Source: Actinomycetota bacterium (lineage in GTDB: Bacteria > Actinomycetota > CADDZG01 > JAHWKV01). Taken from it: DNA of 60,849 bases. Where the stretch lies: positions 1-60,849 of the forward strand of contig DATLOJ010000058.1 in assembly GCA_035536315.1 (NCBI GenBank). The letters are read 5' to 3'. Both the position numbers and the translations under genes were made by a program. Within the stretch, counting starts at the first letter, position 1. Each line of letters begins with the position of its first letter. The notes under the pieces were generated by a model. It had not been told where the DNA came from, did not search any database, and saw only the letters and a program-made list of their open reading frames with translations. This document shows positions 16,286-34,497 of the stretch, piece after piece.

Positions 16286-18129
16286 GCGGGCACCGGCTGC
16301 GCTGCCTGGCCGAGGTAAGCGGTGATGACCTCTGGATGAGACGCAACCTCGTCGGGCGTGCCCTCTGCAAGCAAGCTCCCGAAGTTGAGAACGTATATGT
16401 AGTCGCAAACCGAAAGAACCATTGGGATGTTGTGTTCGATCAGCAGCACCGTGCGGCCAAGCTCGTCGCGAATCTCCTTCAACCTCTCCGCCAGGCTCTC
16501 GACAGCCGCCGGCGCAAAACCGGCGGAGGGCTCGTCGAGCATAAGAAGGGAGGGTGAAGTGATGAGCGCGCATGCGATTTCAACGAGCCTTTGCTGACCA
16601 TGCGACAGGTTCTTCACCGGTGTCTCTGCGTACCGTTCGAAACCGAGGGACTCGATCGCTTCTCGGGCCCGGTCGATCAATTCCGCTTCGATCCGGGCGG
16701 CTTTGGAAGTGAACAACAGTGCAGAACCATCTCCGTAAATTGCGGACGCGTGCTGCGCCATCAGGAAGTTCTCCTGCACGGAAAGGTTCTTCGCCAGCCC
16801 GATCAGCTGAAAGGTTCGTCCCATGCCAAGGGCCGCTCGCGCGTGAGGCGATAGCGCGGTTACGGACTCGCCCTGGAACTTGATGTCACCCGCATCGGGT
16901 TTGACCAGGCCGGAGATCGCGTTGAAAAGCGTTGTCTTTCCGGCGCCGTTCGGCCCGATGAGACCAATGATTTTCCCTGCCGGAACCTCCAGCGAGACTC
17001 CGTCCACGGCGACGAGTCCACCGAAAGAAACGCGGACGTCCGAGACTTCGAGAATCGGCCCCCCTCCTTCCGTGGGCGGAGGGGCCGCGCCTTTGGGGGC
17101 CGGAAGTTTTGGAAGACGCGTCGTCAGATCCTCCGGCGCGGGGTCGCGTTTCGCCTGCCTCTTCATGCGCACCTCATGGAACACCTCGGCAAACCCACCG
17201 GGGTGGTTCGCCATCGTGTACACCAAAAGAAACGCTCCGATGATCAGGTCCCAGCCTTCGATGCTCTGAAGGAGTCGCGGGGTGAGAGCGAAGAAGACGG
17301 CCGCAACAGCCACACCCTTCCGGTTTCCGAGCCCGCCCACAACCACAAGAACAACCAGGAACAGCGACCAGGCGTCGTAGCTAAAAGTGTCTGAGTTGAC
17401 GAAACCTATGAGGTGTCCGTACAGGGCTCCAGACAGGCCTGCGAGCGAACCGGAGAGGACGAACGCCGTCAGTTTGTAGCGAGTGATGTCGATCCCAAAC
17501 GACTGCGCGACAGCCTCGTCCTCTCTGATCGCATGGAAAGCACGTCCGAGCTTTGTCCGAACGACATTCACGTCGAGAAGCCAAACGAAGAGTGCAACGA
17601 CGAGGGCTAAGGCCAGGTAGTCGGCGTTTTCCGTAAGGACCCAGTTGCGGGAAAGTCTTCTGGGCAACTCGAGGCCGGCGGATCCCCGCGTGATCGGCTG
17701 CCATCGAAAGACGGATTCCTGCATCATGAAAGCGAAGCCGATCGTTGCGATAGCAAGATAGAGACCGCGCAGTCGCAAGGCGGGCAAACCGACCAGAAAC
17801 GCGAGGATGGCTCCGAATAAGACGGCTGCCAGCAACCCGGCATACAAGGGCAGTTCCGGGCCTCGAGTGGTGACGAGACCGCTCGCGAAGGCACCGGTCC
17901 CCAGCAAGGCCCCATGCCCCAGCGAGATCTGGCCTGCGTAACCCATGAGGAGGTTCAACGAGAGCGCCGCCGCTACATAGCACGTCGCGACGCCGAGCAT
18001 GAGCGCACGGTAGTCCGTGAAGATTCCGGGGATCGCTCTTGCAAGAAGCGGGGGCAGGATGATGAAGGACGCAGCGACAATCAAGATCTTGATCTGCCTC
18101 GGCGAGGGAGCAAACCCTTTTAGCGACAT
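16282..18129 (-). CDS. Fused LivM-like permease / LivG-like ATPase
   Basis: N-terminal about 330-aa polytopic permease (GQISLGHGALLGTGAF...), a Pro-rich linker, then an NBD (GPNGAGKTT, LSHGQQRLVEIACAL, LMLDEPSAGF). ATG at 18129 chosen because upstream ORF sequence overlaps livH. Confidence 0.85.
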   Translation of the reverse strand: MSLKGFAPSPRQIKILIVAASFIILPPLLARAIPGIFTDYRALMLGVATCYVAAALSLNLLMGYAGQISLGHGALLGTGAFASGLVTTRGPELPLYAGLLAAVLFGAILAFLVGLPALRLRGLYLAIATIGFAFMMQESVFRWQPITRGSAGLELPRRLSRNWVLTENADYLALALVVALFVWLLDVNVVRTKLGRAFHAIREDEAVAQSFGIDITRYKLTAFVLSGSLAGLSGALYGHLIGFVNSDTFSYDAWSLFLVVLVVVGGLGNRKGVAVAAVFFALTPRLLQSIEGWDLIIGAFLLVYTMANHPGGFAEVFHEVRMKRQAKRDPAPEDLTTRLPKLPAPKGAAPPPTEGGGPILEVSDVRVSFGGLVAVDGVSLEVPAGKIIGLIGPNGAGKTTLFNAISGLVKPDAGDIKFQGESVTALSPHARAALGMGRTFQLIGLAKNLSVQENFLMAQHASAIYGDGSALLFTSKAARIEAELIDRAREAIESLGFERYAETPVKNLSHGQQRLVEIACALITSPSLLMLDEPSAGFAPAAVESLAERLKEIRDELGRTVLLIEHNIPMVLSVCDYIYVLNFGSLLAEGTPDEVASHPEVITAYLGQAAQPVPA

Positions 18130-18152
18130 CCCCGCCTTTGTCCCAGTGGTGC

Positions 18153-19025
18153 TCAAGCCGGTGACTTTCCGAGGATGCCCTGGGGACGAAACAGCAGCAC
18201 CAGGATGATCACGAAGAACACTGCGATGGACTGGATTCCCGGGAACTGGTTTCCTATGAAAACCCGCCCGATGATGGACTCGATGAGTCCAATTCCCACT
18301 CCCCCGATGAAAGCTCCGGAGAGACTGCTCAGGCCCCCGAGCAGGGCAGCAGCGAGACCGCGGACGAAGAGCAAAGACATGAATCCGGGGCTGAATGCCC
18401 CGATGGCTGGTTCGATGAGAATTGCCCCGAGGCCGCTTACGAAGGCGGAGGCCCCCCACGTAAAAGCCGAAACCGTTGCAACACGTACTCCAACCAGTCG
18501 CACGGCGACGGGGTCCTGGGATGCTGCGAGCACTCCCAACCCGAAATCTGTTCTGGTGAGGAAGACGGTCAGAGCAATGCCGAGCCCCAGAACCGCCGCG
18601 AAAGCAAGCATGTAGGTGTAGGAGATGTTGAACCCAAAAACTTCCGGCCCGAGCCCTTGAATGGGGGCGCGCAAAACCCTCGGACTCAATCCCCACACCT
18701 TTAGCTCAATGGAAAACAGAAGCAGGAAGAGACCGACTGTGGACACGGCAACGGCCAGTCTTGTAGCGCCCGCCATTCTCCTGACGACGAGCCCTTCGAA
18801 GATCAGTCCGATGGCGACCGCTGCGACGAGGGCCATGGATGCTCCGGCCCACCAGGGCCAGGACTGCTGTTCGTTGAAGGCCCACGCGACGAACAACGTG
18901 AATGTCCCTATCTCCCCCAGACCAAAGTTCAGAACCCTCGAACCGCGATAAACAAGAACCAGCCCGAGGGCGATCAGCCCATAAATTCCACCGTTGGCCA
19001 AGCCGGAGACGATCACGCGACCCAA
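18153..19025 (-). CDS. livH: Branched-chain amino-acid-type ABC permease (LivH-like)
   Basis: GLANGGIYGLIALGLVLVYRGSRVLNFGLGE... is the typical LivH N-terminus. Confidence 0.9.
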   Translation of the reverse strand: MGRVIVSGLANGGIYGLIALGLVLVYRGSRVLNFGLGEIGTFTLFVAWAFNEQQSWPWWAGASMALVAAVAIGLIFEGLVVRRMAGATRLAVAVSTVGLFLLLFSIELKVWGLSPRVLRAPIQGLGPEVFGFNISYTYMLAFAAVLGLGIALTVFLTRTDFGLGVLAASQDPVAVRLVGVRVATVSAFTWGASAFVSGLGAILIEPAIGAFSPGFMSLLFVRGLAAALLGGLSSLSGAFIGGVGIGLIESIIGRVFIGNQFPGIQSIAVFFVIILVLLFRPQGILGKSPA

Positions 19026-19059
19026 GATTTATCCTCCTGTCTGAACGCGATTTTGGGTC

Positions 19060-20556
19060 TTAGAAGTGCTCCTTGCACCGCTCCAGCTCGCGCCACCCAC
19101 TCGTCCCGAGCGGATGCTCTTCTGTGCGCGTTCTCGACTTGACGTAGGTCTCCATGGCGATGAGCGTGTGTCCCCCCACGTGTCCGTTGCGTGTGAAGTC
19201 GAGAGGACAGTTGGGCTGGACTTCCTTGTGTCTCCCGGTAAGGAGAAGCCCGGCAATCTTGTTTCGGGTGCAGTCTCTGCCACAGTCGAGAAGAAGCTGG
19301 TGCATCTGTTTGGCTGCCATCCAGGTCATGAACAGAACGTCGTTTGGGGTGGAGTCGGGATGGCCGTACTTGGCTTGAGCTGCCTCGAACCGGCGCAGCT
19401 CGTCGGCATAGGCGGAGAACGGACCACCGTATTCCCCAAGGGAGTATGCGGGCCACGCAGAGATCCCCTCGATGTCCAGGTCGCCGGCCTCGGCTCCCAG
19501 GGTGTCCGTTGTTGTGTTGAAGGGGAACACCACCCATGTGGGGTTGAACTCCTGCTCTTTGGCTTGTTTGATCATGTCGGTCGCCATCAGCGCGTTCTCC
19601 CAGAAGAAGACGACCTCCGCCCCCTTGCGCTCGAGCTCGTCGATCTCATTCGAGTACACCGCTTGCTGGGCTCTCACGGGAAGTTCGGCAACCAGAGTCA
19701 CGGCGTTTCCGATCGTCTCCTTGAATCCGGTGTATCCGGGCTTCCAGTTGTCGCTGTTGCGCCAAACAACTCCGACCTTCTTCCCGGGATGTTTCTTGGC
19801 AATCCATTCTCCGAACATCTCGCCGGTTTTGTTGACGGTGGGGAAGAAGCTGAAGCTGTACTTCTTGCTCAGGTCTTCGGATGCCATGTGATGCATGTAA
19901 AGAACGTGGTTGTTCTCGGCCCACGCCCTCACCGCAGGTATCTGGTCGAACCCGATTCCCCCGCCAAGGATGAAGGGCCTTCCTTTATTGCATTCCTCCG
20001 CAGCCAGAACCGCTTTATCGGGGAGGTAAGTGTCGTCCTCAAATGTCGCTTGAACCTTCCTTCCGTGTACGCCGCCGTTATCGTTCAGATTCCTCCAGTA
20101 GATATCGAAGTCCTCGGGCCTTGCGTCGAACGCAGGGCCAAGTGAGAGGGCGGCGTGAGTGCAAAGCGTGATCTGCGAATTGGTTATGCCGATACGGTCT
20201 TCCGCCGGCGTGAATATGTCAGCGACCGGAACACCTTCGGCACTCGTGGTGATTTGCACCCCACCTTTTGTCTGGGTGGGTCCTGTTCGGCCGGAGCGTG
20301 GCGCACCCGGAGTTTCGACCGCGACGGCGGCTGTGTCGGTAACTTGTGGAGCCAGTTCCTCGACTGGAGCGGCCGTGACATCGGACTGCTCGGGCCTGAA
20401 CTCAGGACGGCGCGCAAGGGTCTCGGGGTTGCCAAGAAGCATCGAGCTCGTGACGAGCAGCAGAGCAATGGCACCGGCAACGCTCGATCGGTACTGAGTG
20501 CCGACGAAGAACTTGCCGATTCTTCCCGTTTCCCAGACTTGCTTTAGCCAGTTCAT
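19060..20556 (-). CDS. Membrane-anchored type I periplasmic binding protein (LivJ/K-like) for the first Liv-type importer
   Basis: GGAGG 5 nt upstream of the ATG. N-terminal TM segment (VAGAIALLLVTSSMLL), a low-complexity linker, then an about 380-aa PBP-like domain. Operon position is upstream of livH. Confidence 0.78.
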   Translation of the reverse strand: MNWLKQVWETGRIGKFFVGTQYRSSVAGAIALLLVTSSMLLGNPETLARRPEFRPEQSDVTAAPVEELAPQVTDTAAVAVETPGAPRSGRTGPTQTKGGVQITTSAEGVPVADIFTPAEDRIGITNSQITLCTHAALSLGPAFDARPEDFDIYWRNLNDNGGVHGRKVQATFEDDTYLPDKAVLAAEECNKGRPFILGGGIGFDQIPAVRAWAENNHVLYMHHMASEDLSKKYSFSFFPTVNKTGEMFGEWIAKKHPGKKVGVVWRNSDNWKPGYTGFKETIGNAVTLVAELPVRAQQAVYSNEIDELERKGAEVVFFWENALMATDMIKQAKEQEFNPTWVVFPFNTTTDTLGAEAGDLDIEGISAWPAYSLGEYGGPFSAYADELRRFEAAQAKYGHPDSTPNDVLFMTWMAAKQMHQLLLDCGRDCTRNKIAGLLLTGRHKEVQPNCPLDFTRNGHVGGHTLIAMETYVKSRTRTEEHPLGTSGWRELERCKEHF

Positions 20557-23382: not shown

Positions 23383-24039
23383 ATGGCGCAGTCAACCCAC
23401 CGGCGCCTGAGCCCGCCCTCCTCTGGGGGGAAAAATGGCCGCGGAGGTTCTCTCACCAAGAAGGGTGAATTGACGCGGCTGAAGCTTCTCGAGGTGGCCG
23501 AAGAGGTCTTTGGTGAAAAGGGCTACGACCTTGCATCGATCTCTGAGATAACCAGGAGGGCCGGCGTCGCCCAGGGAACCTTCTACTTGTACTTCGAAGG
23601 GAAGAGGCAGATCTTCTCGGAACTCGTACGATCGATCGGACGCACTCTGCGACACGAGCTCCAAACCGCAATTGTGGGCGCTACCACGCGAGCAGAAGTC
23701 GAACGGCTCGGATATCAGGCCTTCTTCGACTATGTGCGCCGCCATCCCAGCATCTACAGAATCGTTCGACAGGCAGAGTTTGTAGACCGCAAAGCGTTCA
23801 GCGATTACTACAGGACGTTCGCCGAGGGATATCAAAAAGGCCTGGAGGCATCAGCGGCTTCCGGCCAGGTTAGAGACCTCGACCCCGAGGTCGTCGCCTG
23901 GTGCTTGATGGGAATGGGGGACCTGGTGGGAGTCAGATGGATTCTTTTGGACGGCGGGGGCCGCGTTCCAAAGAAGGTCCTCGACACGATGCTCGACCTG
24001 ATCGCCAACGGCTTGAACGGGGCCGGCAACGCCAAGTAA
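23383..24039 (+). CDS. TetR-family transcriptional regulator
   Basis: HTH region RLKLLEVAEEVFGEKGYDLASISEITRRAGVAQGTFYLYF. Divergent from the KAS III-like gene. Confidence 0.85.
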   Translation: MAQSTHRRLSPPSSGGKNGRGGSLTKKGELTRLKLLEVAEEVFGEKGYDLASISEITRRAGVAQGTFYLYFEGKRQIFSELVRSIGRTLRHELQTAIVGATTRAEVERLGYQAFFDYVRRHPSIYRIVRQAEFVDRKAFSDYYRTFAEGYQKGLEASAASGQVRDLDPEVVAWCLMGMGDLVGVRWILLDGGGRVPKKVLDTMLDLIANGLNGAGNAK

Positions 24040-24109
24040 CGGCTTCAACCCGAACTCGATCGGCTTTTGGATAAGCCGGCGCGCTTACCTCACGCCGAAC
24101 CGAACGGCG

Positions 24110-25543
24110 GTGGAGTTCGAGGACGAACTGATCAGCTATTCCCAGCTGAACGACCGCTCGAATGCCTTCGCATCGGTTCTCGAGTCTGAAGGCCTCGAGA
24201 AGGGCGACCGGGTTGCAGTCCTTTCTGAGAATCGTCCCGAGTATCTGGGGCTGTTCTTCGCCTGCGCAAAGCTGGGGCTCGTGCTGGCCCCCGTCTCCTG
24301 GAGGCTTTCGCCAGAAGAGATGGCCTGGCAGCTGAATGACTCCTCACCTTCGGTGCTGTTCGCTTCAGACGAATACCTGGAGGCCGCGAAGGTTCTGTTC
24401 TCCCAAAGAGTCATCGAACTTCAGTCGGAAGGGGCGACCGGTGATCGGCCGGCGGAACCTTCAGATCGAAGCAGCTTCGACGATCCGCTCATGATCCTGT
24501 ACACGAGCGGCACGACCGGAAGGCCCAAGGGTGCGGTTCTGACCCATGGCAACTTCTTCTGGGCAAATCTCAACATGATCGTTGCGTCACAGTTTTCCTC
24601 CGACGATGTGAGTCTCGTTTTCCTCCCGATGTTCCACATCGGCGGGTGGAACATCAACACGCTTACGGTGCTGCTCAAGGGCGGCAAGGTCCTGCTCGAA
24701 AAGTCGTTCGATTCGAAGAGAGCCCTCGACCTCATAGAGCGAAAACACGTTACGTGGATGATGGGCGTCCCGGCTACGTATCTGTTTCTGAGTCAGGCCG
24801 AGGGGTTCGAGAGCCGCGATCTTTCATCTGTCCGGCAGATGGTCGTTGGGGGTGCACCCATGCCAGAGGCGCTCCTAAAAACGTACTCGGACCGGGGTAT
24901 CGAGATCGTGCAGGGTTATGGCTCTACCGAGCTGGCCCCCAACGCGCTCTTATTGCCTATGGATGAAGCCGGGGCTCGGCAGGGGTCTGCAGGTCAGCCT
25001 TACTTCTTTACAGATACGCGGCTGATGAACGACGAGGGAGATCTGCTCGAGCCCCCAGCCACCGGCGAGATAGTTGCGCGGGGGCCGATTGTCATGAAGG
25101 GGTACTGGCAGAGAGAAGATGCGACCGCCGATGCCATTAAAGAGGGCTGGCTTCATACCGGCGATGTCGCCCGCACCGACGAGGATGGCTACTTCTACGT
25201 CATAGACCGAAAGACCGACATGATCATCTCCGGGGGGGAGAACATCTATCCGGCCGAGGTTGAGAATGCGCTTTACCAGCACCCCCACATAGCGGAGGCG
25301 GCCGTATTTGGGATTCCCGACGACCGGTGGGGCGAGGCGGTGCACGCCGTCATCGTTCCCAAGGAAGGCTCGGAACTTAGCGGGGAAGATGTCATCGCCC
25401 ATTGCAAAGGCATTCTGGCCAAGTTCAAGACTCCGCGTTCGGTCGAAATTACAGCCGATCCTCTGCCCCGAACTCCGGCCGGCAAGGTCCGCAAACACGA
25501 TTTGCGCGTGGAGCATTGGCGGGGAAGGGACAGGAACATATGA
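24110..25543 (+). CDS. AMP-dependent acyl-CoA synthetase/ligase (FadD-like)
   Basis: LYTSGTTGRPKG, GYGSTE, GDV.R.DEDGYFYV.DR..D.I..GGENI.P.E.E. The GTG at 24110 is the first canonical start. Confidence 0.9.
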   Translation: MEFEDELISYSQLNDRSNAFASVLESEGLEKGDRVAVLSENRPEYLGLFFACAKLGLVLAPVSWRLSPEEMAWQLNDSSPSVLFASDEYLEAAKVLFSQRVIELQSEGATGDRPAEPSDRSSFDDPLMILYTSGTTGRPKGAVLTHGNFFWANLNMIVASQFSSDDVSLVFLPMFHIGGWNINTLTVLLKGGKVLLEKSFDSKRALDLIERKHVTWMMGVPATYLFLSQAEGFESRDLSSVRQMVVGGAPMPEALLKTYSDRGIEIVQGYGSTELAPNALLLPMDEAGARQGSAGQPYFFTDTRLMNDEGDLLEPPATGEIVARGPIVMKGYWQREDATADAIKEGWLHTGDVARTDEDGYFYVIDRKTDMIISGGENIYPAEVENALYQHPHIAEAAVFGIPDDRWGEAVHAVIVPKEGSELSGEDVIAHCKGILAKFKTPRSVEITADPLPRTPAGKVRKHDLRVEHWRGRDRNI

Positions 25544-26592
25544 GACGCCTTTTCATAGGGATTGTCGCCGCCGCACTGATGGGCTTCACGGTCCCAGCCG
25601 GTGCAGACCATCAGTTCGCCCACCGCAAGCCCTCGGGGCCTGCTCCCAAACAGTTCGCGGCCGACTTCGCTCCCCCGCTCGACTCGGAGTGGAAGTGGGA
25701 GATTGGTGGCTTTGGTGGAACCGCAAGAGGTACGCCGCTCAATTACAACCCGGTCATCCTCGTGCACGGTCAGGCGTACGACCACGCCTTCTGGAGTGCG
25801 GGGGCCGAAGTTCCTCCGAGCATCATGAACGTGCGCAATTACCTGAAGTCCCAGGGATATTCGGACCAGGAGGTATGGGCCTTCTCCTATAACGGGGCCG
25901 GCTGCATGAACACCTCTGGATGCGGTACTAACAACGAAACCAACGTTCCGGACTTCTTTGCGTTCATGCAAGCGGTCATGGAGTACACGGGATCGGCGAA
26001 GGTCGACGTCGTCGCGCACTCGCTTGGAGTCACGATTGTCCGCAAGTCCATCCAGACTCATCCAGAACTGCTCGGCCAGATCGAAGACCTCGTGCTTGCT
26101 GCGGGAGCCAACCACGGCACTTCGTCATGCAGAGGGAACGAAACTTTTTGGTTTGGATGCGACGAGATCGTGCCAGGCTCTCAATGGCTCGCCGACCTGA
26201 ACTCCTGGGATCCGGCCGGGGAAGGCGACGAGACTCCGGGACCAATCCGCTACATGACCATCTACGACCCGGTTGCTGACAACTTCTTCGTGAATGCGGG
26301 AATCTACGACGATACGAAGAGCCCCCGCTTGACCGGCGCAAACAACAACGAGCTGCCGGGCGCGCTGCATCTTCCGCTTGCAAGGGGGCAAGCCGCACTT
26401 CGCCTCTGGGTTCCGTTCATCAAGTCGAACAACAACGTCGTTCAATCCTCGACTGCCACTTCCGAGGAAGGTCGCGCTTCCATCGGCTCTCTTGCCGTAG
26501 GGGGTCCTCCGTTTCTGCCCACACTCGGTCTGGTCCTCGTAGCTATCGCGATCGCAATCTTGGTACCGAACAGAAGAGTGATTCGACAGTAG
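25540..26592 (+). CDS. Secreted class-2 (Bacillus LipA-like) lipase/esterase with C-terminal membrane anchor
   Basis: Signal peptide MRRLFIGIVAAALMGFTVPAGA. PVILVHGQ, nucleophile elbow VVAHSLGV, AAGANHG. C-terminal hydrophobic helix plus basic tail NRRVIRQ. The ATGA overlaps the ligase stop. Confidence 0.8.
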   Translation: MRRLFIGIVAAALMGFTVPAGADHQFAHRKPSGPAPKQFAADFAPPLDSEWKWEIGGFGGTARGTPLNYNPVILVHGQAYDHAFWSAGAEVPPSIMNVRNYLKSQGYSDQEVWAFSYNGAGCMNTSGCGTNNETNVPDFFAFMQAVMEYTGSAKVDVVAHSLGVTIVRKSIQTHPELLGQIEDLVLAAGANHGTSSCRGNETFWFGCDEIVPGSQWLADLNSWDPAGEGDETPGPIRYMTIYDPVADNFFVNAGIYDDTKSPRLTGANNNELPGALHLPLARGQAALRLWVPFIKSNNNVVQSSTATSEEGRASIGSLAVGGPPFLPTLGLVLVAIAIAILVPNRRVIRQ

Positions 26593-26603: not shown

Positions 26604-27803
26604 TCACTCGCCCTTCTTGAGCTCCTCTCGAGCGATCACCATCTTGTGAACCTCGTCTGCCCCGTCGACGATGTGGAGGGTCCGCGCGTGCGCGTACATG
26701 ACGGCGAGCGGAAAGTCGTCGGACAGTCCGGCCCCCCCGTGCACCTGAATGGCCCGGTCGACCACCCAGGTCGCGGTCTCGGCAGCCGCGACTTTTATCG
26801 CGGAGATCTCGGTCCTTGCAGAACCCTTTCCGTGAACATCCATGGCCCACGCTGCTTTCAATGTCAGCAGGCGGACCTGCTCGATCCTTATCCGTGACTC
26901 GGCAATCCATTCCCGAATGACCCCCTGCTTGGCCAAAGGGATTCCAAACGCAACACGGGTCTTTGCCCTCGCACACATCATGTCGAGAGCGCGCTCGGCC
27001 ATCCCGACCGCGCGCATGCAGTGATGAATACGGCCGGGGCCGAGCCTTGCCTGTCCGATCATGAACCCGGCCCCCTCGCCGCCGAGAAAATTGTCAACCG
27101 GGACGCGGACATCCTTGAACTCGATCTCGCAGTGACCGTGCCCTTCGTCGTAACCAAAGACGGGGAGCGTCCTCACTACATTCACACCCGGCGTGTCCAT
27201 TGGAATTAGAACGAGGCTGTGTTGCATGTACTTCTCGGCTTCTGGATTGCTGCGGCCTAGAAACAGGATGACCTTGCATCGTGGGTCTGCTGCCCCGGTC
27301 GTCCACCACTTCCGGCCGTTGATGATCAGTTCGTCACCTTCACGCTCGATCGTGCTCTCGAGATTGGTGGGGTCGGAGCTGGCAACCTGCGGTTCCGTCA
27401 TCGCGAAGCACGATCGGATGGTGCCGTTGAGTAGCGGCCGAAGCCACTCTTGCTGCTGCTCGGGTGTCCCGAACTCGGCAAGGATCTCCATGTTTCCCGT
27501 ATCCGGGGCCGCGCAGTTCAGGGCCTCTGGAGCGATGTAGCTGCGCCCCGTGATCTCGGCAAGCGGCGCGTACTCGAGATTCTTAAGGCCCGGCCCCCAT
27601 TTCTCGTCGGCCATAAACAGATTCCAGAGGCCGAACTGTTGTGCCTTCTCCTTAAGCTCCTCCATGACTCCAGGAGCGGCGCGCGATTCAGAGATCCGAA
27701 GCTGATCCGCGTAGACCGCCTCGTTCGGGTAGACGTGGGTGTCCATGAAATCGAGAAGCCGGCCTTGGAGCTCCTGCACGCGCTCGCTGTGCTCGAAGTC
27801 CAT
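26604..27803 (-). CDS. Acyl-CoA dehydrogenase (ACAD10/11- or FadE2-like)
   Basis: CFAMTEP..ASSD, RKWWTTGA, IHHCMRAVG, and a C-terminal IVDGADEVH catalytic-base region. Confidence 0.9.
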   Translation of the reverse strand: MDFEHSERVQELQGRLLDFMDTHVYPNEAVYADQLRISESRAAPGVMEELKEKAQQFGLWNLFMADEKWGPGLKNLEYAPLAEITGRSYIAPEALNCAAPDTGNMEILAEFGTPEQQQEWLRPLLNGTIRSCFAMTEPQVASSDPTNLESTIEREGDELIINGRKWWTTGAADPRCKVILFLGRSNPEAEKYMQHSLVLIPMDTPGVNVVRTLPVFGYDEGHGHCEIEFKDVRVPVDNFLGGEGAGFMIGQARLGPGRIHHCMRAVGMAERALDMMCARAKTRVAFGIPLAKQGVIREWIAESRIRIEQVRLLTLKAAWAMDVHGKGSARTEISAIKVAAAETATWVVDRAIQVHGGAGLSDDFPLAVMYAHARTLHIVDGADEVHKMVIAREELKKGE

Positions 27804-27805
27804 AC

Positions 27806-28315
27806 CTACCAGTCCTCGAATAGTTCGATGGGAGACTCCCCTTCGCCGATCTCACGCAAGGCACCGTTGTAGAAGACGAGCGGCTTTGTGCTGTTGTCCA
27901 TTCTGGCTGTGACCTCGACTCTCCCAACTATCAACATGTGATCTGCAACGTCGAACTTCTGCTCGACCCTGCACGCAAACGCCGCGCCCGAGGCATTCGC
28001 GATTGGAATCTTCTCCAAATCGACAAAGTCGGAGAACTCACGGCTCTCGGAATCCCGTGCGAACGACCAGCAGAGTTCGTTGCTGCCAGAGGAGAGAATG
28101 CTTACGGCAAACATGCCGCTATCTTCCACCGCCGCCAGGGTTCTGCTGGGTTTCGCAAGGCTCACCAACACGAGCGGAGGCTCGAGTGAAATCGAAATAA
28201 GCGAATTGACAGTCATTCCCTCCGCGTTCCCCAATGAATCCGTGCTGGTCACGATGGCGACTCCAGTAGGCCATAACCTCATCGCTGCACGAAACTCCTC
28301 CCTTGTCACCCCCAA
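27806..28315 (-). CDS. Flavin reductase-like FMN-binding split-barrel protein
   Basis: FRAAMRLWPTGVAIVTS...GMTVNSLISISLEPPLVLVSL is typical of HpaC/flavin reductase domains. It ends 2 nt before the ACAD start. Confidence 0.85.
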   Translation of the reverse strand: MGVTREEFRAAMRLWPTGVAIVTSTDSLGNAEGMTVNSLISISLEPPLVLVSLAKPSRTLAAVEDSGMFAVSILSSGSNELCWSFARDSESREFSDFVDLEKIPIANASGAAFACRVEQKFDVADHMLIVGRVEVTARMDNSTKPLVFYNGALREIGEGESPIELFEDW

Positions 28316-28356: not shown

Positions 28357-30354
28357 TCACGCAGGAGTCGCTGTCTGCTCGGCGATCTCGGATCGAAATG
28401 TCGAGACGTCTACTTTTCGAAGGAGCAGCATCGTGAACGCAAGGCCTACGGCTTCTATAAGAAACACACCGGAGTACGCCCACACGCTCGAGCTGGTAAC
28501 GCCAAGGACAAGTCCATGGATCGCCCCCCCACCGGCTGTGGCAAGCCCTTCTGCAACGGCTCGGGCCAGGGTCCAGAAACCCATGAACATCCCAACCGCG
28601 CCGGGTGTTGACATATCCATCATCAAAGAAAGGGCACCGACTGTAAGTATCCCAAGCCCGATCCCCATTAGAAGGATGGAACCTCGCAGGAGAGGCTGAT
28701 TCAGCAAGGGCCCGGACAGAGCGAGAAGAAGGAATGCCACCGAGCTGATCACCAGGCCGTAACCCGCGACCGTCTTCTTCGACTTCGTTCGGGACGCTCG
28801 CCCGCCAACAGCCATTCCGGCGAGCACCCCTGCAATTTGTATCGAGTTGAACATCGTGGTCTGCCTCACCGACAAGGAGAAGACCTCGCCTCCGAAAGGC
28901 TCGAGTACTGCTTGCTGGAGAAAGGCAAACGAAATAGCCAGAACCATGAAAGCGAAGAAGATGCGAGCCTGTTTGGAAGCGAGGGGTTTTAGCAAGCTCT
29001 CGATCGACCGATCGGGCGATTTCGGCTGCACGCCCCGCCGCTCAACTCCCGAGACCGCGACGTAGGTAAGAACCAGCAAGACTCCCGCCCCGGCCGCAAA
29101 AAGCAACTTTAGCCGTGACGCCGTGTACTCACTGAGAAAGCCGATGCTCATAGCGACCCCTGCCAAAATTCCGAGCATCAGCATCGAATACACGACTGAA
29201 GTGGTCCGCCCTCGTTCCTTTGCGTCCGTGAGATCGGCGAGCAGTGCAAAGTACGCTGCACCGGACGCGTACATGCCTGCGCCCATCAAACAAAGAACTG
29301 CTGTTGCGGCGATACCGGCCCGCACACCGCCCGCGCTTGCCATGTAAAGGGCGGCAAATGGCGTCAGGACAGTCGCCGCGGCAGTGGCAAGAGTGCCGCC
29401 GAGGATGTAGGGCGTTCGATGTTTGCCAAACACGGGCCTGCGGTCGCTCAGCCGGCCGACATAAATCGCCAGTGGGGCGGTCAGGTTGAAAGTCGCGAGG
29501 ACGGCCGCAGTCAGCCACAGCTCGATTCCGAGCTCCACCTTCATGATCCTGTTGAGAACGCCAAGAACGAGCACAGAAAGCATGCCCGCCGCGAACTCTC
29601 GAAGACCGATGCGCAATAGCCGGCGCAGCGGAATCGTAGGAGGTTGCATTGGGATCGCCAGCCTCTCCGCCTCGTCGAGCATGGTCGTTACCTGGTTCGG
29701 CTGAAGGCTCTCCCCCCTCCTGAGATCCTTGTCCGCTACTGCTGTCTCGCCTTTGTAGGGGGCAAGTTTCCCGCTTTCCAGGACGTAGATGGTGTCGCAG
29801 ACACTCTCCAGGAAAGCCCGGTCGTGCTCGACGACAACAATCCCCTTGCCTCGAGCCCGCCACTGAATGATCAACTGAGCCACTCTTGCACGCTCGGCCC
29901 CCGAAAGACCGGCCGTCGGCTCGTCTAAAAGGATCACCGAAGCTTCACCCTGAGCGGCGATGCTCAGCTCGAGCATTCTCCTCATACCGGTAGAGAGCTC
30001 ATCAACTCGCGCCTGCGATGGAACGTTTCCGCCGTTGGCACCGGCACGCAGGACCTTCCTGACCTCAGCCGCCGTGAGCGAGGGAAACATGGGGGATCCT
30101 TGAAATGTCCGATGCACCCCAAGCTCGATGCGCCGTCTCGCCGGCACCCTGAAAGTATTTGTGCCCGCTAGACGAACTTCGCCCTGGGCCGGGACAAGGC
30201 CCCCTATAGCGTCAAGCAGGGTGGTCTTTCCGCTACCGTTCGAGCCAACAACTCCAATTACCTCACCAGCAGACAGGCAAAGGTTCACCCCGTCCAGGAT
30301 CTTTCTCTCCCCGCGCGTTGCGGCCAGCCCGGCGACTTCCAGCACAACCGTCAT
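28357..30354 (-). CDS. Fusion protein: LivG-like ABC nucleotide-binding domain + PucC/BCD-family MFS-type membrane domain
   Basis: NBD motifs GSNGSGKT, LSTGMRRMLEL, ILLDEPTAGL, VVEHD (aa 1 to about 205). Then about 430 aa of multi-TM sequence with LNRIMKVELGI...APLAIYVGRLSDRRPVFGKHRTPYILGG. The ATGA overlaps the upstream gene. Confidence 0.8.
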   Translation of the reverse strand: MTVVLEVAGLAATRGERKILDGVNLCLSAGEVIGVVGSNGSGKTTLLDAIGGLVPAQGEVRLAGTNTFRVPARRRIELGVHRTFQGSPMFPSLTAAEVRKVLRAGANGGNVPSQARVDELSTGMRRMLELSIAAQGEASVILLDEPTAGLSGAERARVAQLIIQWRARGKGIVVVEHDRAFLESVCDTIYVLESGKLAPYKGETAVADKDLRRGESLQPNQVTTMLDEAERLAIPMQPPTIPLRRLLRIGLREFAAGMLSVLVLGVLNRIMKVELGIELWLTAAVLATFNLTAPLAIYVGRLSDRRPVFGKHRTPYILGGTLATAAATVLTPFAALYMASAGGVRAGIAATAVLCLMGAGMYASGAAYFALLADLTDAKERGRTTSVVYSMLMLGILAGVAMSIGFLSEYTASRLKLLFAAGAGVLLVLTYVAVSGVERRGVQPKSPDRSIESLLKPLASKQARIFFAFMVLAISFAFLQQAVLEPFGGEVFSLSVRQTTMFNSIQIAGVLAGMAVGGRASRTKSKKTVAGYGLVISSVAFLLLALSGPLLNQPLLRGSILLMGIGLGILTVGALSLMMDMSTPGAVGMFMGFWTLARAVAEGLATAGGGAIHGLVLGVTSSSVWAYSGVFLIEAVGLAFTMLLLRKVDVSTFRSEIAEQTATPA

Positions 30355-32933
30355 CTGAGCTGAACCTCGCGGGACCTTTCGCGAACGGCCCCGTCTTTGA
30401 TTTCGAACTCTCTGTGACTGCCCTCGTTCGACGAGTGGGCAACTCTGATCACCGCAGTTCCTCTGGACGCGAAGGACCTTTCGAGCTCACGCGATACCTC
30501 ATCCAAGGTGGAGTCGAGTCCCGCGTCGAGCTCGTCGAGCATCAGGACGCGTGGTCGCTGGAACATTGTTTGGCAAAGTGCCACGAACCGCTGCTCGCCT
30601 CCTGAAAGACTCCCCGCCTTTCTATCAAGCATCGGAGTGGTCCGAGGAAACGACCCGATGCACACCTGGAGCATTTTGCGGAACTGAATCAGGTCTGGGT
30701 GGGAGTTAAAGGATGCGACCCTAAGGTTTTCTCTGACCGTAAGTTCTTCGAACACCGGGTTGTCGCCATCCACGAGAACCACGCCTGCCCTGGAAACCTC
30801 ATCGGGGTAGAGGGTCCCAAGATCCATCTGTCCCGCTCGAATCGATCCACGCGAAGGAACCAGCCCGGCAATCGCCTTCAAGAAAGTTGACTTACCCGAT
30901 CCGTTCGCGCCGGTCAGGGACACAACCTCTCCAGCGTCTAGCGTCAGCGACGCTCGCACAACGTCAGCGCCACCCGGATAAGAAACCTGCAGGTCACTCA
31001 CTTCGAGAACACCGCCGAAATCCTTGCGGCCCAAAGGCGCGAGGTCACCCCCTTCTCGACTGAACATCCTTGAAACGGCGGAGGCTGAAGCAAACCCGCC
31101 CGGAAGTAAAAGCAGCAGAAGCAAGATTCCGCCCCCCGTCCCCAGCAGTTCCCATGGCCCGTTCAGAAACAATGTCGCGCCCGACACCGCTGCGGCCCCC
31201 ATCGCTCCCCCCCAAACGCTTCCGGCACCTCCAACCACAACCATCGCGGTCAGCAGAATTGAGCGGTCGGCGCCCAGCGCTGCCGGATGAAGATCGAGTT
31301 GGTTAAAGAGGTACAGGAATCCCGCGACTCCGGCAACTGCTCCCGAGAGCACGTAAGCACAGACGCGAGCAAATCCTGCATTCAATCCATAAGCAGTGGC
31401 GACCCTCTCCGAATCCCTTACGGCGAGCATCTCCAAACCAAGCCGGCTCGCTCGCATCCATCTGGCAAGCCACAGGGATCCAGCCAGGGCAAAACAAATC
31501 AATAGCGAATTCCCAGCCGACCGTCCAAGAAGAGGCCACTCGGGTCCCAGTCCAACATCAGTCCGGCGCAGGACAGACGTGAGGGTGAACAGGCCCTGTG
31601 CCGCAACCGCGAATCCGATGGTGGCAACCGCGTACGGGAAGGGGCCCTTCGACTGAGCAGGCAAGGCGGCGACAACAGAAGCGGCCGCACCTGCCACTAC
31701 GCCCGCCGCTGCGGCCGCTGGATACCCCAACGGGACTGCTGCCGCTGCCGCAAAGGATCCTGCGCCCACGACAGCCCAGTGCCCCAGCGACAGCGTCCCG
31801 GTGAACACCGCGGCGATGGAAACCGCCGCTCCGGCGAGTGCAAAAACTCCCACAGATCCGATTCGCTGCGAGGTGCTCGACCCAACGCTGACAAGCACGA
31901 AGGTGGCGAGCGAGAGAGCGGCAACCGTCAGGGCAGCCATAGCCAAAGGCCGGCCTCTTATGCGTGCCACGTCGGCAAGAGCCTTCGACCTGACCCGGAG
32001 GGCCGCCGATGCCTCTCGGTCGAGTGCCAGAACTAAGAGGGCCAGGAGGAACAAGGCAACATCTGCAACTGCCGCCCTGTCCGTCACCCAAAGCACGCAC
32101 TGGTGTGCGACGCCGGTGAACATGGAAACCGCGGTAGCGGACAGGACTCCAGCCATTCTGGCCGCGACCGCTGGCAGTAATGCGAAAAGGATGAGGCTCG
32201 CGCCAGGGCCGGTATCGAGGGCGGGTCCGGAGAGAGTGAAGGTCATCGCCCCGGCCGCCGCTGCGAGCAACCCGGCGGTCAACCATGTCAGGGCCGAGAC
32301 CCTCCGCGCAGGAATACCGAGACACGCCGAGCGCTCGAAGTTGCTTCCGACCGCACGGGCCGCAACCCCGTGAAGGCTGCGCGAGTAGAACCACTTCCCG
32401 AATGCCACTCCCAGGACGGCTAGAGCTGCCGCGAGGACATGCTGGCTTTTGAACAAGACCGGAAACACGTCAATCGATAGTTCGAAAGGTGTGATCGGTT
32501 TAGGAAGACCTCCCGAAAACAAGATTCCGGCCCGCGCTGCTCCAAACAAGTAGGCGATCCCAACGCTCGCTGCGACAAGCGTCAGAGCCGGACGCGAGCG
32601 GAAGCGCCAGAGAACGAAGTGCGAGAAGAGCCCTGCCGCCGCCCCCACCACGCATCCGGTGAGTAGCGCTCCCCAAAACCCGAATCGGGATTCGGCCACA
32701 CGCGCGACGGTAACGCCGGTCAGCAAGGCCATCGAGGGTTGGGCGAGGTTCAGAAATCCATGCGTTCTGTAAATGAGAATCAGAGCCACCGAGCTGGCTG
32801 CAGTCACCAAACCGCCAAGGGCTCCCAGTAGAACTACGCCCGGAGGAACTCCACCGAGCACCGCGAAAGCTAGGAGCAATCCTCCTGCGATGATCCAGAG
32901 AAGAAGTGGCCGGCTGCTGTTATCTGAATTCAT
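30351..32933 (-). CDS. Triple fusion: LivH-like permease + LivM-like permease + LivF-like ATPase in one polypeptide
   Basis: Two successive polytopic Liv-type permease regions, then an NBD (GANGSGKST, LSGGEQRFVALCQ, LMLDELDAGL, VAHS). ATG at 32933 chosen; the upstream part of the 929-aa ORF overlaps the binding-protein gene. Confidence 0.8.
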   Translation of the reverse strand: MNSDNSSRPLLLWIIAGGLLLAFAVLGGVPPGVVLLGALGGLVTAASSVALILIYRTHGFLNLAQPSMALLTGVTVARVAESRFGFWGALLTGCVVGAAAGLFSHFVLWRFRSRPALTLVAASVGIAYLFGAARAGILFSGGLPKPITPFELSIDVFPVLFKSQHVLAAALAVLGVAFGKWFYSRSLHGVAARAVGSNFERSACLGIPARRVSALTWLTAGLLAAAAGAMTFTLSGPALDTGPGASLILFALLPAVAARMAGVLSATAVSMFTGVAHQCVLWVTDRAAVADVALFLLALLVLALDREASAALRVRSKALADVARIRGRPLAMAALTVAALSLATFVLVSVGSSTSQRIGSVGVFALAGAAVSIAAVFTGTLSLGHWAVVGAGSFAAAAAVPLGYPAAAAAGVVAGAAASVVAALPAQSKGPFPYAVATIGFAVAAQGLFTLTSVLRRTDVGLGPEWPLLGRSAGNSLLICFALAGSLWLARWMRASRLGLEMLAVRDSERVATAYGLNAGFARVCAYVLSGAVAGVAGFLYLFNQLDLHPAALGADRSILLTAMVVVGGAGSVWGGAMGAAAVSGATLFLNGPWELLGTGGGILLLLLLLPGGFASASAVSRMFSREGGDLAPLGRKDFGGVLEVSDLQVSYPGGADVVRASLTLDAGEVVSLTGANGSGKSTFLKAIAGLVPSRGSIRAGQMDLGTLYPDEVSRAGVVLVDGDNPVFEELTVRENLRVASFNSHPDLIQFRKMLQVCIGSFPRTTPMLDRKAGSLSGGEQRFVALCQTMFQRPRVLMLDELDAGLDSTLDEVSRELERSFASRGTAVIRVAHSSNEGSHREFEIKDGAVRERSREVQLR

Positions 32934-34497
32934 CGCGGCCGTACCGACGGCCGTTTTCGGGAAATACATAGGCGCCTGCAAGGCTGCCCCCGCCTCGATG
33001 CGCCGTGTTCGACCATTGCAGCACCGTAAAGTCCCCGACGATATTTCGCTCGGCCCGGTCCATGCTGAGCAACATGTTGGAGGAGGCAGGCGCTCCGAGA
33101 CCGCTGTATCGATATGGGGAGAACGCATCGAGTCCGGCACCGAAGGTCTTCGGATTCAAATTCGGACCAGCGTTCGTGATTCCCGTCACCAGCGGAAGAA
33201 GAGCCGAGTAGATATAGGGAGCCTGGGCAGGGGGCTCACCTCGACTCATGCTCATGTACTTGGTGTACCACTCACTTTGCCGTGACTGGTCGTCAATGAC
33301 GATGTCATGCATGAACTGCGGGTCGTAACAAGTAAGACCTTTGGCCCTGCCCCACTGATTGGCGTTGTAGAGCCTCACCATCGCGTGAGAGTCCTGCCCG
33401 GAACATGGCCAGATGAAGTAGTCCGGATGGTAGTCGTGACTCTCGGCAGCCGGGGTGAATGACATCGGAGTTCCAGCGTCCGGAATGATCACGGTATTCA
33501 CCCCGGCACCGACGAATTTGGCGATCACATTCGACGACTCCCCCTGGGCATCGGTAAGGCTGGCCGAAACGGAGGCGACCTCTACAACGTTGACACCCGA
33601 AGACCGGAGCCTGGCGACTACCTCGGGGATTGCTTCGACGAGCCCTGGATACTCCGCGTAAACAAGACCAAACCTTCGCGGTTCTTGATTCACAGTTCCA
33701 CGGTATGGGTCGTCTGCGACGCGCTCGGATAGATAACCCTGGACGGCGTCGAGCTGCGCGTCGAATGAAGCTGCGGAAGGTATGCAGTACCCGTTGGTCT
33801 TGCCATACATGCCGAAGTCCACGTTGAAAGTAGCGAGGCTGAAGACGCCGGCCCTTGCGAGCCGGGGACAGGTGTAGGCCGACAAGGATCCGTGGGCAGC
33901 GACTGCCGCGAACGGTTTCAGATCGCTCGCGATGTACTCGGCGGTCGCGCTCGCGTCTTCCGGACTGCTTCCCACATCTATGACTCTTCCCACAAGCTTT
34001 CGCCCATGAAGGTTGAACGGGAAGCCCATGATCGAGCCGCCACCTGCGGCATGCTTGTTTATGTACTCGATCCAGGTCTGGAATCCAACACCCTCGTCAA
34101 CGTTGGACTCGACTCCCGTCCCTTTCAGAAAGGCGCTCGTCCTGGTCTGGTCGCCTTTCCAGTAATAGACGACCTCAATATGGGTGTCGGTGATCCCATT
34201 GATGACCGTTCCGGCTTCGACGTCCTCGCGACTAGCCTCGGCTTTGGTTCGTCTAGCCTTTTTCGCCGTGTCCGTAGCAGATGATGGTGAGCCCGGCTGC
34301 TCTTGGGGAACGGCTTCGCCCGGACCCACGAACGGGCCGGAATCCTTAAACGACGCCTTCTTATTGCCCGGCTTTCCGTCGCTTCCGCATGCCGCTGCGA
34401 ATAGCAGCAGAGCCATCACCAACGCGAGCACCCTGAAAAGCGATTTCAGCTTGATGACCCTTCCACTCCTTGGGTTGATGGGGGCGAGGCGGCGCAA
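32920..34497 (-). CDS. Lipoprotein, type I periplasmic binding protein for the second Liv-type importer
   Basis: Lipobox LLFAAAC followed by a low-complexity linker and an about 450-aa PBP-like domain. Start uncertain (TTG at 34497, 34569 or 34578). Confidence 0.72.
   Translation of the reverse strand: MRRLAPINPRSGRVIKLKSLFRVLALVMALLLFAAACGSDGKPGNKKASFKDSGPFVGPGEAVPQEQPGSPSSATDTAKKARRTKAEASREDVEAGTVINGITDTHIEVVYYWKGDQTRTSAFLKGTGVESNVDEGVGFQTWIEYINKHAAGGGSIMGFPFNLHGRKLVGRVIDVGSSPEDASATAEYIASDLKPFAAVAAHGSLSAYTCPRLARAGVFSLATFNVDFGMYGKTNGYCIPSAASFDAQLDAVQGYLSERVADDPYRGTVNQEPRRFGLVYAEYPGLVEAIPEVVARLRSSGVNVVEVASVSASLTDAQGESSNVIAKFVGAGVNTVIIPDAGTPMSFTPAAESHDYHPDYFIWPCSGQDSHAMVRLYNANQWGRAKGLTCYDPQFMHDIVIDDQSRQSEWYTKYMSMSRGEPPAQAPYIYSALLPLVTGITNAGPNLNPKTFGAGLDAFSPYRYSGLGAPASSNMLLSMDRAERNIVGDFTVLQWSNTAHRGGGSLAGAYVFPENGRRYGRDEFR

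Follow-up and report, generated by a model that had tools for sequence, protein, structure and literature searches.

A conserved fusion of a LivG-like ABC ATPase domain to a PucC-family MFS domain, encoded in a Liv-type cassette of uncultured Actinomycetota

The ATP-binding cassette (ABC) transporters and the major facilitator superfamily (MFS), the two largest superfamilies of transporters, are taught as mechanistically separate, the former driven by ATP and the latter by gradients. Within the PucC family only the light-harvesting assembly factors PucC and LhaA have, to our knowledge, a studied role, and tetrapyrrole handling is the only functional association of PucC/LhaA relatives that we know of. 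Many non-phototrophs encode PucC relatives of unknown function. Here, we describe an open reading frame (ORF) that unites the two superfamilies in one chain. It lies at positions 28357-30354, minus strand, of a 60,849-nucleotide contig from an Actinomycetota bacterium (GenBank DATLOJ010000058.1, assembly GCA_035536315.1), and this whole stretch of DNA is referred to below as the window.

The ORF starts with ATG and runs uninterrupted for 665 amino acids (aa). In Pfam, residues 20-148 match ABC_tran (PF00005; 3.7e-21, 76.6 bits versus a cut-off of 25) and residues 266-651 match PUCC (PF03209; 3.1e-71, 241 bits versus a cut-off of 21) over profile positions 1-399 of 401, that is, at full length; MFS_1 is matched as well (1.4e-18). 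The N-terminal nucleotide-binding domain (NBD2) carries GSNGSGKT as Walker A, LSTGMRRMLEL as signature, ILLDEPTAGL as Walker B, and VVEHD as H-loop. All residues of ATPase competence are in place (G37-N39-G42-K43-T44, Q85, L120-S-T-G123, D144-E145, and H177), and the signature reads LSTGM, not LSGGQ, which is a LivG/UrtD-like variant. Judged by its motifs, NBD2 is a complete and catalytically intact ABC ATPase. In the MFS half, motif A (consensus used, G-x-x-x-D-R/K-x-G-R-R/K in the loop from transmembrane helix [TM] 2 to TM3) appears between TM2 and TM3 as G300-R-L-S303-D304-R-R-P...R313. A first-pass annotation made from the letters alone had proposed a single 665-aa frame with a complete LivG-like NBD and a membrane half of the PucC/MFS type, and both proposals agree with the ORF, the quoted motifs, and the Pfam matches; the two PucC-type helices that it quoted are found in the sequence. 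The short linker that it described exists, but it measures ~45 residues and not ~30, with TM1 beginning near residue 250 and low model confidence at residues 203-236.

AlphaFold2 (AF2), supplied with the family alignment, models the full-length fusion at a mean predicted local distance difference test score (pLDDT) of 87, with both domains confident and residues 203-236 disordered (pLDDT <50 at 203-218 and 228-236). NBD2 reaches a pLDDT of ~90, and its best Foldseek matches are LptB and structures of the TM1139 type (the Thermotoga LivF-like TM1139). The MFS half was modeled and searched separately, since NBD matches dominated the Foldseek search with the full-length model. Modeled alone (pLDDT 88.5; predicted TM-score [pTM] 0.86), it shows 12 long helices and resembles the 12-TM MFS structures YajR (3wdo) and MelB (7l16) at TM-scores of 0.75-0.81 and 13-19% identity. 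PucC and LhaA have 12 TM helices and two cytoplasmic termini according to PhoA-fusion work cited in PMC4949548, so that a cytoplasmic N-terminal ATPase would, by analogy, be topologically consistent with this family.

The fusion is not confined to the window. In a search of 5.8 billion clustered proteins, at least 76 clusters at 90% identity contain both PF00005 and PF03209, and these align with 97-99% of the query at 39-47% identity. They derive from independent metagenomes in NCBI, JGI, ENA, and Logan assemblies, and their hosts are mostly Actinomycetota or Acidimicrobiales metagenome-assembled genomes. Named records read “MFS transporter” (Actinomycetota or Acidimicrobiales bacterium) or “BCD family chlorophyll transporter-like”, and the label “MFS transporter” alone hides the ATPase half and the whole system; examples of fused records are HVL90794.1, MEX2658352.1, MFP5224802.1, and HVL80557.1. 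The architecture is rare: at 50% identity, an exhaustive HMMER search of 1.84 billion representatives yields just five clusters with the full-length fusion (P0055, P0002, P0020, P0121, and that of the window) plus two fragments. A profile search with the full-length alignment was dominated by the Walker A pattern; the 80 loci drawn from the matches listed were used as a generic-ABC background set, and an MFS match is absent in all 80 of these generic ABC ATPase loci.

An alignment of 32 homologues shows no variation at the Walker A residues, Q85, L120-S-T-G123, D144-E145-P146, and H177. Among these proteins, the tether differs in length and sequence, always keeping the reading frame, and only its last residues are retained, with S242, W244, and R248-R252 conserved in the fused clade. 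GC content and base composition are flat across the NBD-MFS junction. P0107, the sole apparently unfused clade member, is an N-terminally truncated sequence that still carries a fused-type tether. The fusion is a small conserved family in uncultured Actinomycetota, with a fixed four-part cassette. Within it, the window protein forms a deep lineage of its own, with a maximum of 47% identity to any relative. The helical subdomain of its NBD2, which lies between the Q-loop and the signature (residues 86-119; window 29997-30099), falls 13 residues short of that in every other fused homologue and is modeled by AF2 at a pLDDT of ~57. In ABC proteins, the part shortened here normally touches the coupling helix of the permease.

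The cassette consists of a lipoprotein binding protein (510-570 aa), a LivH/LivM permease (~630 aa), a first ATPase domain (NBD1), and NBD2::PUCC as the last member. It occurs in 12 related loci (denoted by L numbers) besides the window, and the full cassette is seen in the same order in the window, L001, L002/L003, L085, L086, L096, L098, L099/L168, L170, L171, L172, and L173; the contig-limited loci L100, L102, L105, and L169 show as much of it as they contain. Wherever the flanking DNA of a related locus reaches far enough, the fused gene comes last, with the exception of L125 (8336-11557). There, homologues of NBD1 and NBD2::MFS are present, the match to the window MFS domain is only partial, and 8 kb of upstream DNA yielded neither a permease nor a binding protein; the copy may be in decay or have been rearranged. 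NBD1 can be a protein of its own (441-478 aa) or fused to the permease, and in most cassette loci its stop and the start of NBD2 overlap by 4 nt. The window follows this pattern, its fusion ATG overlapping the TGA of the permease-permease-NBD ORF in an ATGA at 30351-30354, as the first-pass annotation had read it. For that upstream ORF, ATG 32933 (861 aa) is a likelier start than GTG 33140, because the latter would overlap the binding-protein gene by 220 nt. The binding protein, whose start codon is uncertain and probably TTG 34497, has a signal peptide ending in LLLFAAAC and a low-complexity linker. Sequence searches of the PDB were uninformative for the binding protein and the permease, a profile search there found no sequence relative of the MFS domain, and in some family members the binding protein or permease falls below Pfam thresholds. 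A scan for operon promoters and terminators gave nothing above shuffled expectation.

The two ATPase domains of the cassette form a complementary pair. NBD2 matches the NCBIfam model UrtD (7.7e-32) better than UrtE (1.6e-24), and NBD1, with the motifs GANGSGKST, LSGGEQR, LMLDELD, and VAHS, prefers the reverse. A second, conventional Liv system is located 8 kb away in the window; of its two ATPases, NBD2 is closer to LivG (99.8 bits) than to LivF (70.5 bits), and NBD1 is closer to LivF (85.9 bits) than to LivG (63.9 bits). NBD2 remains below the NCBIfam equivalog cut-offs (UrtD, 110.9 bits versus 304; LivG, 85.4 versus 362), and by these scores it is a distant relative of LivG/UrtD and not an orthologue. 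PF12399 (BCA_ABC_TP_C, the LivG C-terminal motif) was detected in the window's 804-aa LivM::LivG and undetected in the fusion, where the tether stands in its place. The fused protein is the only possible G-type partner for NBD1, because the second Liv system has its own LivG and LivF and the cassette holds no other ATPase. On the strength of gene order, translational coupling, and G/F complementarity, the parsimonious reading is that the fusion serves as the second (G-type) ATPase of a divergent Liv-type importer, with NBD1 and NBD2 as a putative heterodimer under the LivH/M permease. This is the position in which the earlier annotation had placed it.

Across all related cassettes, the binding proteins share 40-56% identity whatever their genomic context, and that of the window is 40-54% identical to the others, reaching 54% with L171. 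None of them shows similarity to the binding protein of the window's second Liv system. Such a single orthologous group suggests one substrate class. Architectural variation is seen next to NBD1: all six aligned relatives carry a hydrophobic insert of 180-240 residues (~4-6 TM helices) between the LivM-like permease and NBD1, which forms the N terminus of NBD1 where NBD1 is separate (compare L171:4057-7227 and L002:6619-7284). The window's permease-NBD1 protein (30351-32933) is devoid of it, with the gap after residue 642 (~nt 31008). The insert has no Pfam match even at an E value of ≤10, and its assignment to a known domain was dropped.

Selection appears to act on the MFS half as well. Its nearest relatives are stand-alone PucC-like proteins of ~430 aa with 46-52% identity, which begin exactly at the tether end (M…LRLGLRQFAAGM) and have no ABC genes within 8 kb. 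In a neighbor-joining tree, which gives a rough topology only, 75 of the 76 fused MFS domains form one clade that is sister to the stand-alone clade, with the window's domain near the base. At 83 positions the same residue is at least 90% conserved in both clades, and many of these positions are shared with the outgroups (cyanobacterial and Chloroflexales PucC-like proteins). This core includes motif A, R269, D374, R381, and the LQQxxLEPFGG segment, and G300, S303, D304, and R313 are invariant in the fused clade, the stand-alone clade, and the outgroup. Within-clade identity averages 0.60 among the fused MFS domains and 0.61 among the stand-alone ones. These shared positions and near-equal identities leave relaxed selection on the MFS half unsupported, and the alignments indicate purifying selection on both halves; the MFS half is predicted to be a complete and apparently working carrier. 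Positions specific to the fused clade are N290, L291, Y389, and H598, the last being R in the window. The conserved covalent union of an ABC and an MFS domain, each under selection, suggests that they can work jointly as one unit.

Clues to the substrate come from the genes around the cassette in its relatives. Haem oxygenase pairs or a HugZ-like gene, together with ferritin or VIT1, border the cassette in 7 of 16 related loci, the window not being among them (Table 1). The haem oxygenases are canonical, matching HO-1 and HmuO structures at ~1e-30, and their pairs occur in three arrangements: divergent upstream (L001, L096, L098, and L170), convergent downstream (L172), and co-directional downstream (L173). 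L001 adds VIT1, DUF2470, a Bfd-type ferredoxin, and ferritin, and L173 adds VIT1. In L171, a CREG/PNPOx_N+DUF2470 gene is translationally coupled to the fusion and followed by ferritin; we take this architecture to be that of HugZ-type haem-degrading proteins. By tblastn, five fused loci contain haem-oxygenase homologues (the pair in L173 being a sixth), and no homologue turned up in the generic ABC loci (1.44 Mb) or the stand-alone PucC loci (0.72 Mb). Because haem-degradation and iron genes recur in this way and PucC/LhaA handle tetrapyrroles, haem or a related iron tetrapyrrole is the best substrate candidate for the family, at even chances or a shade better. For the window copy itself, haem is a possible but rather doubtful substrate.

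Further features accompany the cassette. A small secreted protein rich in histidine (151-196 aa) is found in both the haem context and a second, coenzyme A (CoA) catabolism context, in L002, L086, L099/L168, L172, and L173. Besides a signal peptide, it shows two conserved motifs, C-x-T-W/Y-Y-R…H and H-x-H-x-G-H-Y-V-V-R…Y-V/I-E-V/I-V/I-G-G-G. In five lineages its gene directly follows the fusion or precedes that of the binding protein, and the window lacks it. No Pfam or NCBIfam model matches it; it may be a fifth component of the system, perhaps one that binds a ligand outside the cell. Two operator-like palindromes lie upstream of the binding-protein gene in haem-context loci: CGACA-N3-TGTCG just upstream in four of them, mostly by a TetR gene, and TTAGG-N4-CCTAA, which resembles IdeR/DtxR half-sites, in two. 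A search for IdeR/DtxR boxes gave partial palindromes in two relatives and none upstream of the window cassette, where the only similar matches have at least 6 mismatches and lie inside the binding-protein gene.

Table 1. Coordinates of the features discussed, in the window and in related loci
Feature	Locus	Positions	Strand	Evidence or remark
Substrate-binding lipoprotein, divergent Peripla_BP_6	Window	32920..34497	-	Pfam 2.5e-16; lipobox
Fused LivH-like + LivM-like permease, N-terminal part of 861-aa permease-NBD1 protein	Window	31017..32933	-	Pfam BPD_transp_2, two stretches, 6.7e-32; hydropathy
NBD1, LivF-like ABC ATPase at permease C terminus	Window	30351..31016	-	Pfam ABC_tran 1.2e-22; NCBIfam UrtE/LivF-type
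NBD2, LivG-like ABC ATPase, fusion residues 1-200	Window	29755..30354	-	Pfam, NCBIfam, AF2, Foldseek
Flexible tether, residues 201-247	Window	29614..29754	-	AF2 pLDDT; in-frame indels in alignment
PucC/BCD-family MFS domain, 12 TM helices, residues 248-665	Window	28360..29613	-	Pfam PUCC, AF2, Foldseek
Flavin reductase (StyB/HpaC-like), 41 nt downstream of fusion	Window	27806..28315	-	Pfam Flavin_Reduct 1.7e-34; NCBIfam StyB-like 8e-37, below cut-off
Acyl-CoA-dehydrogenase-fold protein, directly after flavin reductase	Window	26604..27803	-	Pfam Acyl-CoA_dh_N/M/1
Secreted class-2 lipase	Window	25540-26592	+	Pfam; signal peptide, C-terminal hydrophobic anchor
Long-chain fatty-acid-CoA ligase	Window	24110-25543	+	Pfam; NCBIfam PRK06187, 490.7 bits versus cut-off 476
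TetR regulator, FadR/FasR-like	Window	23383-24039	+	Pfam
Second Liv system	Window	15527-20556	-	
Second Liv system, binding protein	Window	19060-20556	-	
Second Liv system, LivH	Window	18153-19025	-	
Second Liv system, LivM::LivG	Window	16282-18696	-	
Second Liv system, LivF	Window	15527-16573	-	
Haem oxygenase tandem pairs	Related	L001:791-2298, L096:2033-3480, L098:3087-3812, L170:2615-4017, L172:11551-12985, L173:12871-14207		
HugZ-like PNPOx/CREG+DUF2470 gene + ferritin	Related	L171:9266-10628		
Small His-rich protein	Related	L002:10205-10795, L086:11149-11631, L168:3465-3968 (=L099:2393-2893), L172:10435-10890, L173:11034-11558		
CGACA-N3-TGTCG palindrome	Related	L001:2413-2470, L098:3915-4043, L172:3213-3225, L173:4106-4118		
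TTAGG-N4-CCTAA palindrome	Related	L096:3511-3524, L170:4038-4051		
Neighbors of stand-alone PucC-like sisters, examples	Related	L088:743-1921, L090:6510-7622, L089:908-1360, L091:997-1902, L091:6233-6748		

Taken as a whole, we give slightly better than even credence to the following explanation: the fusion is the LivG-type ATPase of a divergent Liv-like importer specific to Actinomycetota (of the hydrophobic amino acid transporter [HAAT] type) that carries a PucC-family MFS carrier for a molecule linked to the substrate, with haem as the best family candidate. The lipoprotein binding protein would capture the substrate and dock on the LivH/M permease, under which NBD1 and NBD2 would hydrolyze ATP as a heterodimer. 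The ~45-residue tether would give each importer a single MFS unit, held next to it in the membrane, and that unit would carry a molecule tied to the imported substrate, either as a second uptake leg or hand-over of an amphipathic substrate or as export of a breakdown product. In the haem case, the MFS unit would take over haem for the final step into the cytoplasm or export biliverdin. Hand-over or product export would explain a one-to-one tethering, and we do not think that the MFS unit is a mere passive anchor. The earlier annotation saw no known role for a PucC-like module in a non-phototroph. Photosynthesis genes are absent among the scanned window ORFs of at least 200 aa (Pfam; a few such ORFs were unscanned) and in every related locus. 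The haem-gene links in relatives offer a plausible tetrapyrrole role. Together, the links to haem oxygenase, HugZ-like genes, ferritin, and VIT1 provide a testable idea for PucC relatives at large, namely tetrapyrrole handling. If the haem link is true, the cassette would represent a new kind of haem-acquisition system in abundant uncultured Actinomycetota of soil and aquatic habitats.

Several observations weigh against this explanation. The putative link of NBD2 to NBD1 or the permease is drawn from gene arrangement and sequence comparison, and the single-chain AF2 model gives no confident packing of NBD on MFS (pTM 0.66). No haem or iron gene is present among the scanned ORFs of the window (60 kb, Pfam), and neither of the two operator-like palindromes was found there. 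We know of no Peripla_BP_6-type binding protein that binds haem. The stand-alone sister clade adjoins cysteine-biosynthesis genes, which do not point to tetrapyrroles, and in the relatives L002, L086, L099/L168, L102, and L169 genes for a CoA ligase, a short-chain dehydrogenase/reductase (SDR), and a TetR regulator converge on the fusion. Lastly, the function of the window copy may differ from that of the rest of the family, because it branches deeply (≤47% identity), the helical subdomain of its NBD2 is 13 residues shorter, and its permease has no hydrophobic insert.

The synteny of the stand-alone sisters (L088-L095 and L097) is conserved and centers on a sulfur-carrier cysteine pathway, with MoeZ-like ThiF-rhodanese, CysM-like PALP enzyme, JAB/Mec, and ThiS/CysO-DUF4395 genes, as well as a ferritin/Dps-like gene and an unannotated 441-aa protein. 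We considered these neighbors, including the ferritin-like gene, as a substrate clue and judged them to be lineage synteny and uninformative.

An alternative that we regard as unlikely, though deserving of some weight, is that the cassette imports a fatty, aromatic, or other organic carboxylic acid, that the MFS domain provides a parallel proton-driven route or an overflow exporter, and that the haem genes are unlinked neighbors. The surroundings of the window fusion agree with this. Downstream, a flavin reductase probably shares its operon, followed by an acyl-CoA dehydrogenase (ACAD)-fold protein for which all NCBIfam matches are far under their cut-offs and which may be a true ACAD or may supply the oxygenase half of a two-component flavin monooxygenase. 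Genes for a FadR/FasR-like TetR regulator, a fatty-acid-CoA ligase above its NCBIfam cut-off, and a secreted lipase (23383..26592, plus strand) converge on this operon, which ends in the ACAD-fold gene; we list them as context only. Genes for a CoA ligase, an SDR, and a TetR stand directly after the fusion in the five relatives named above, and where upstream DNA is available (L002, L086, and L099/L168), ACAD, ChsH2-like, thiolase, and HpcH genes precede the cassette. Peripla_BP_6 proteins are known binders of aromatic and aliphatic acids. Yet with only 31-37% identity, the CoA ligase and ACAD of the window are not orthologues of their counterparts in the relatives; we rejected them as a context shared by the window and its relatives, and the association comes down to one clade plus the window. 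Moreover, the cassette binding proteins do not group by haem versus CoA context, and the haem oxygenases are specifically enriched and occur in three arrangements, with one locus carrying a non-homologous haem-degrading type instead. Elsewhere in the window, an 805-aa ORF (4880-7297, minus strand) has no Pfam match at an E value of ≤1e-4.

Less probable again is a hybrid in which the ABC ATPase powers the importer and also drives or gates the tethered MFS domain; in the family, this would amount to Liv-type haem uptake in which the PucC-like domain takes the pigment or expels a bilin. Coupling of ATP hydrolysis to the MFS domain and a sensor role for it, both ideas of the first-pass annotation, stand as hypotheses. 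If an ATP-driven or ATP-gated MFS domain is real, it would be the first MFS fold within an ATP-driven complex.

A purely structural role, in which the MFS domain has lost transport activity and serves only to anchor NBD2 at the membrane or, as a scaffold, to stabilize the complex, we consider improbable. Both NBDs are membrane-tethered, NBD1 via the permease or its own N-terminal region of 5-6 TM helices, which suggests selection for tethering as such. An anchor, however, would have no need of motif A and the 83 core positions, and these are kept as strictly as in free-standing relatives; the divergence within the fused clade also equals that within the stand-alone clade.

A true primary/secondary hybrid, in which NBD2::MFS acts alone (for example, as a homodimer) or ATP gates the carrier while an NBD1 homodimer serves LivH/M, seems to us equally hard to credit, and marginally harder than the anchor. 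It would account for the joint conservation of the ATPase motifs and the MFS core and for the retained tether end, and the order of NBD and then membrane domain on a single chain is that of ABCG-type half transporters. Against it, the fusion never occurs without the permease-NBD1 cassette (L125 apart) and is translationally coupled to NBD1, the LivF-like and LivG-like domains complement each other as they do throughout the Liv systems, no coupling helix that would fit the groove of an NBD is known from MFS folds, and the tether is long, disordered, and variable. Finally, an artefact in which adjacent livG and pucC genes were joined by a frameshift, misassembly, or lost stop codon has a negligible probability and is, from the comparison of sequences, excluded for practical purposes, because the single frame, with no stop or frameshift splitting it, recurs in at least 76 clusters from independent assemblies, the tether varies in frame, the only “unfused” member is a truncation with a fused-type tether, and composition is uniform at the junction.

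Compared with described systems, the reading of the fusion as part of a Liv-like importer finds its closest match in LivFGHMJ and UrtABCDE (HAAT, TC 3.A.1.4). The cassette shares with these the Peripla_BP_6 binding protein, two BPD_transp_2 halves, a LivG-like and LivF-like ATPase pair, and the gene order of binding protein, permeases, and ATPases. It differs in ATPase order, with the F-like one ahead of the G-like one, and in domain make-up: the F-like NBD shares a chain with the permease or with an additional TM region, and a 12-TM MFS domain, in place of PF12399, extends the G-like NBD. The binding protein and permease are also too divergent for a sequence match to a solved structure. A literature search, in which most subscription papers were beyond reach, found no description of an ABC-PucC or ABC-MFS fusion or of a link between PucC and haem, in line with the earlier annotation, which knew of no characterized system with an importer NBD tethered to an MFS fold. 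With PucC/LhaA (PF03209), the MFS domain shares a full-length, high-scoring profile match, 12 TM helices, and, by analogy, cytoplasmic termini. The fusion stands apart from them in its attached ABC ATPase, in its Actinomycetota/Acidimicrobiales hosts, and in the lack of a photosynthesis gene cluster, and a light-harvesting assembly role for its MFS domain is impossible. The members compared with it, cyanobacterial and Chloroflexales PucC-like proteins from the protein search, are only 33-37% identical.

ArsA-ArsB likewise associates an ATPase with a membrane protein of the secondary-carrier type, but ArsA does not belong to the ABC NBDs nor ArsB to the MFS, the two are separate chains, and the NBD of the fusion would also serve an ABC permease. 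MalK, MetN, and ModC carry an extra module at the C terminus of an importer NBD as well, theirs being small soluble regulatory domains; by this comparison, an appendage of the present kind on a Liv-type importer subunit is unprecedented. ABCG half transporters have the NBD first, as the fusion does, but their membrane domain is an ABC-type transmembrane domain with coupling elements. HmuTUV and ChuTUV, together with HmuO or HugZ, resemble the relatives' loci, where the ABC cassette clusters with haem oxygenase or HugZ-like genes and iron storage; those are type II systems with Peripla_BP_2 binding proteins and FecCD permeases, whereas the cassette described here pairs a Liv-type importer with an MFS domain, and its neighborhood in relatives is what points to haem.

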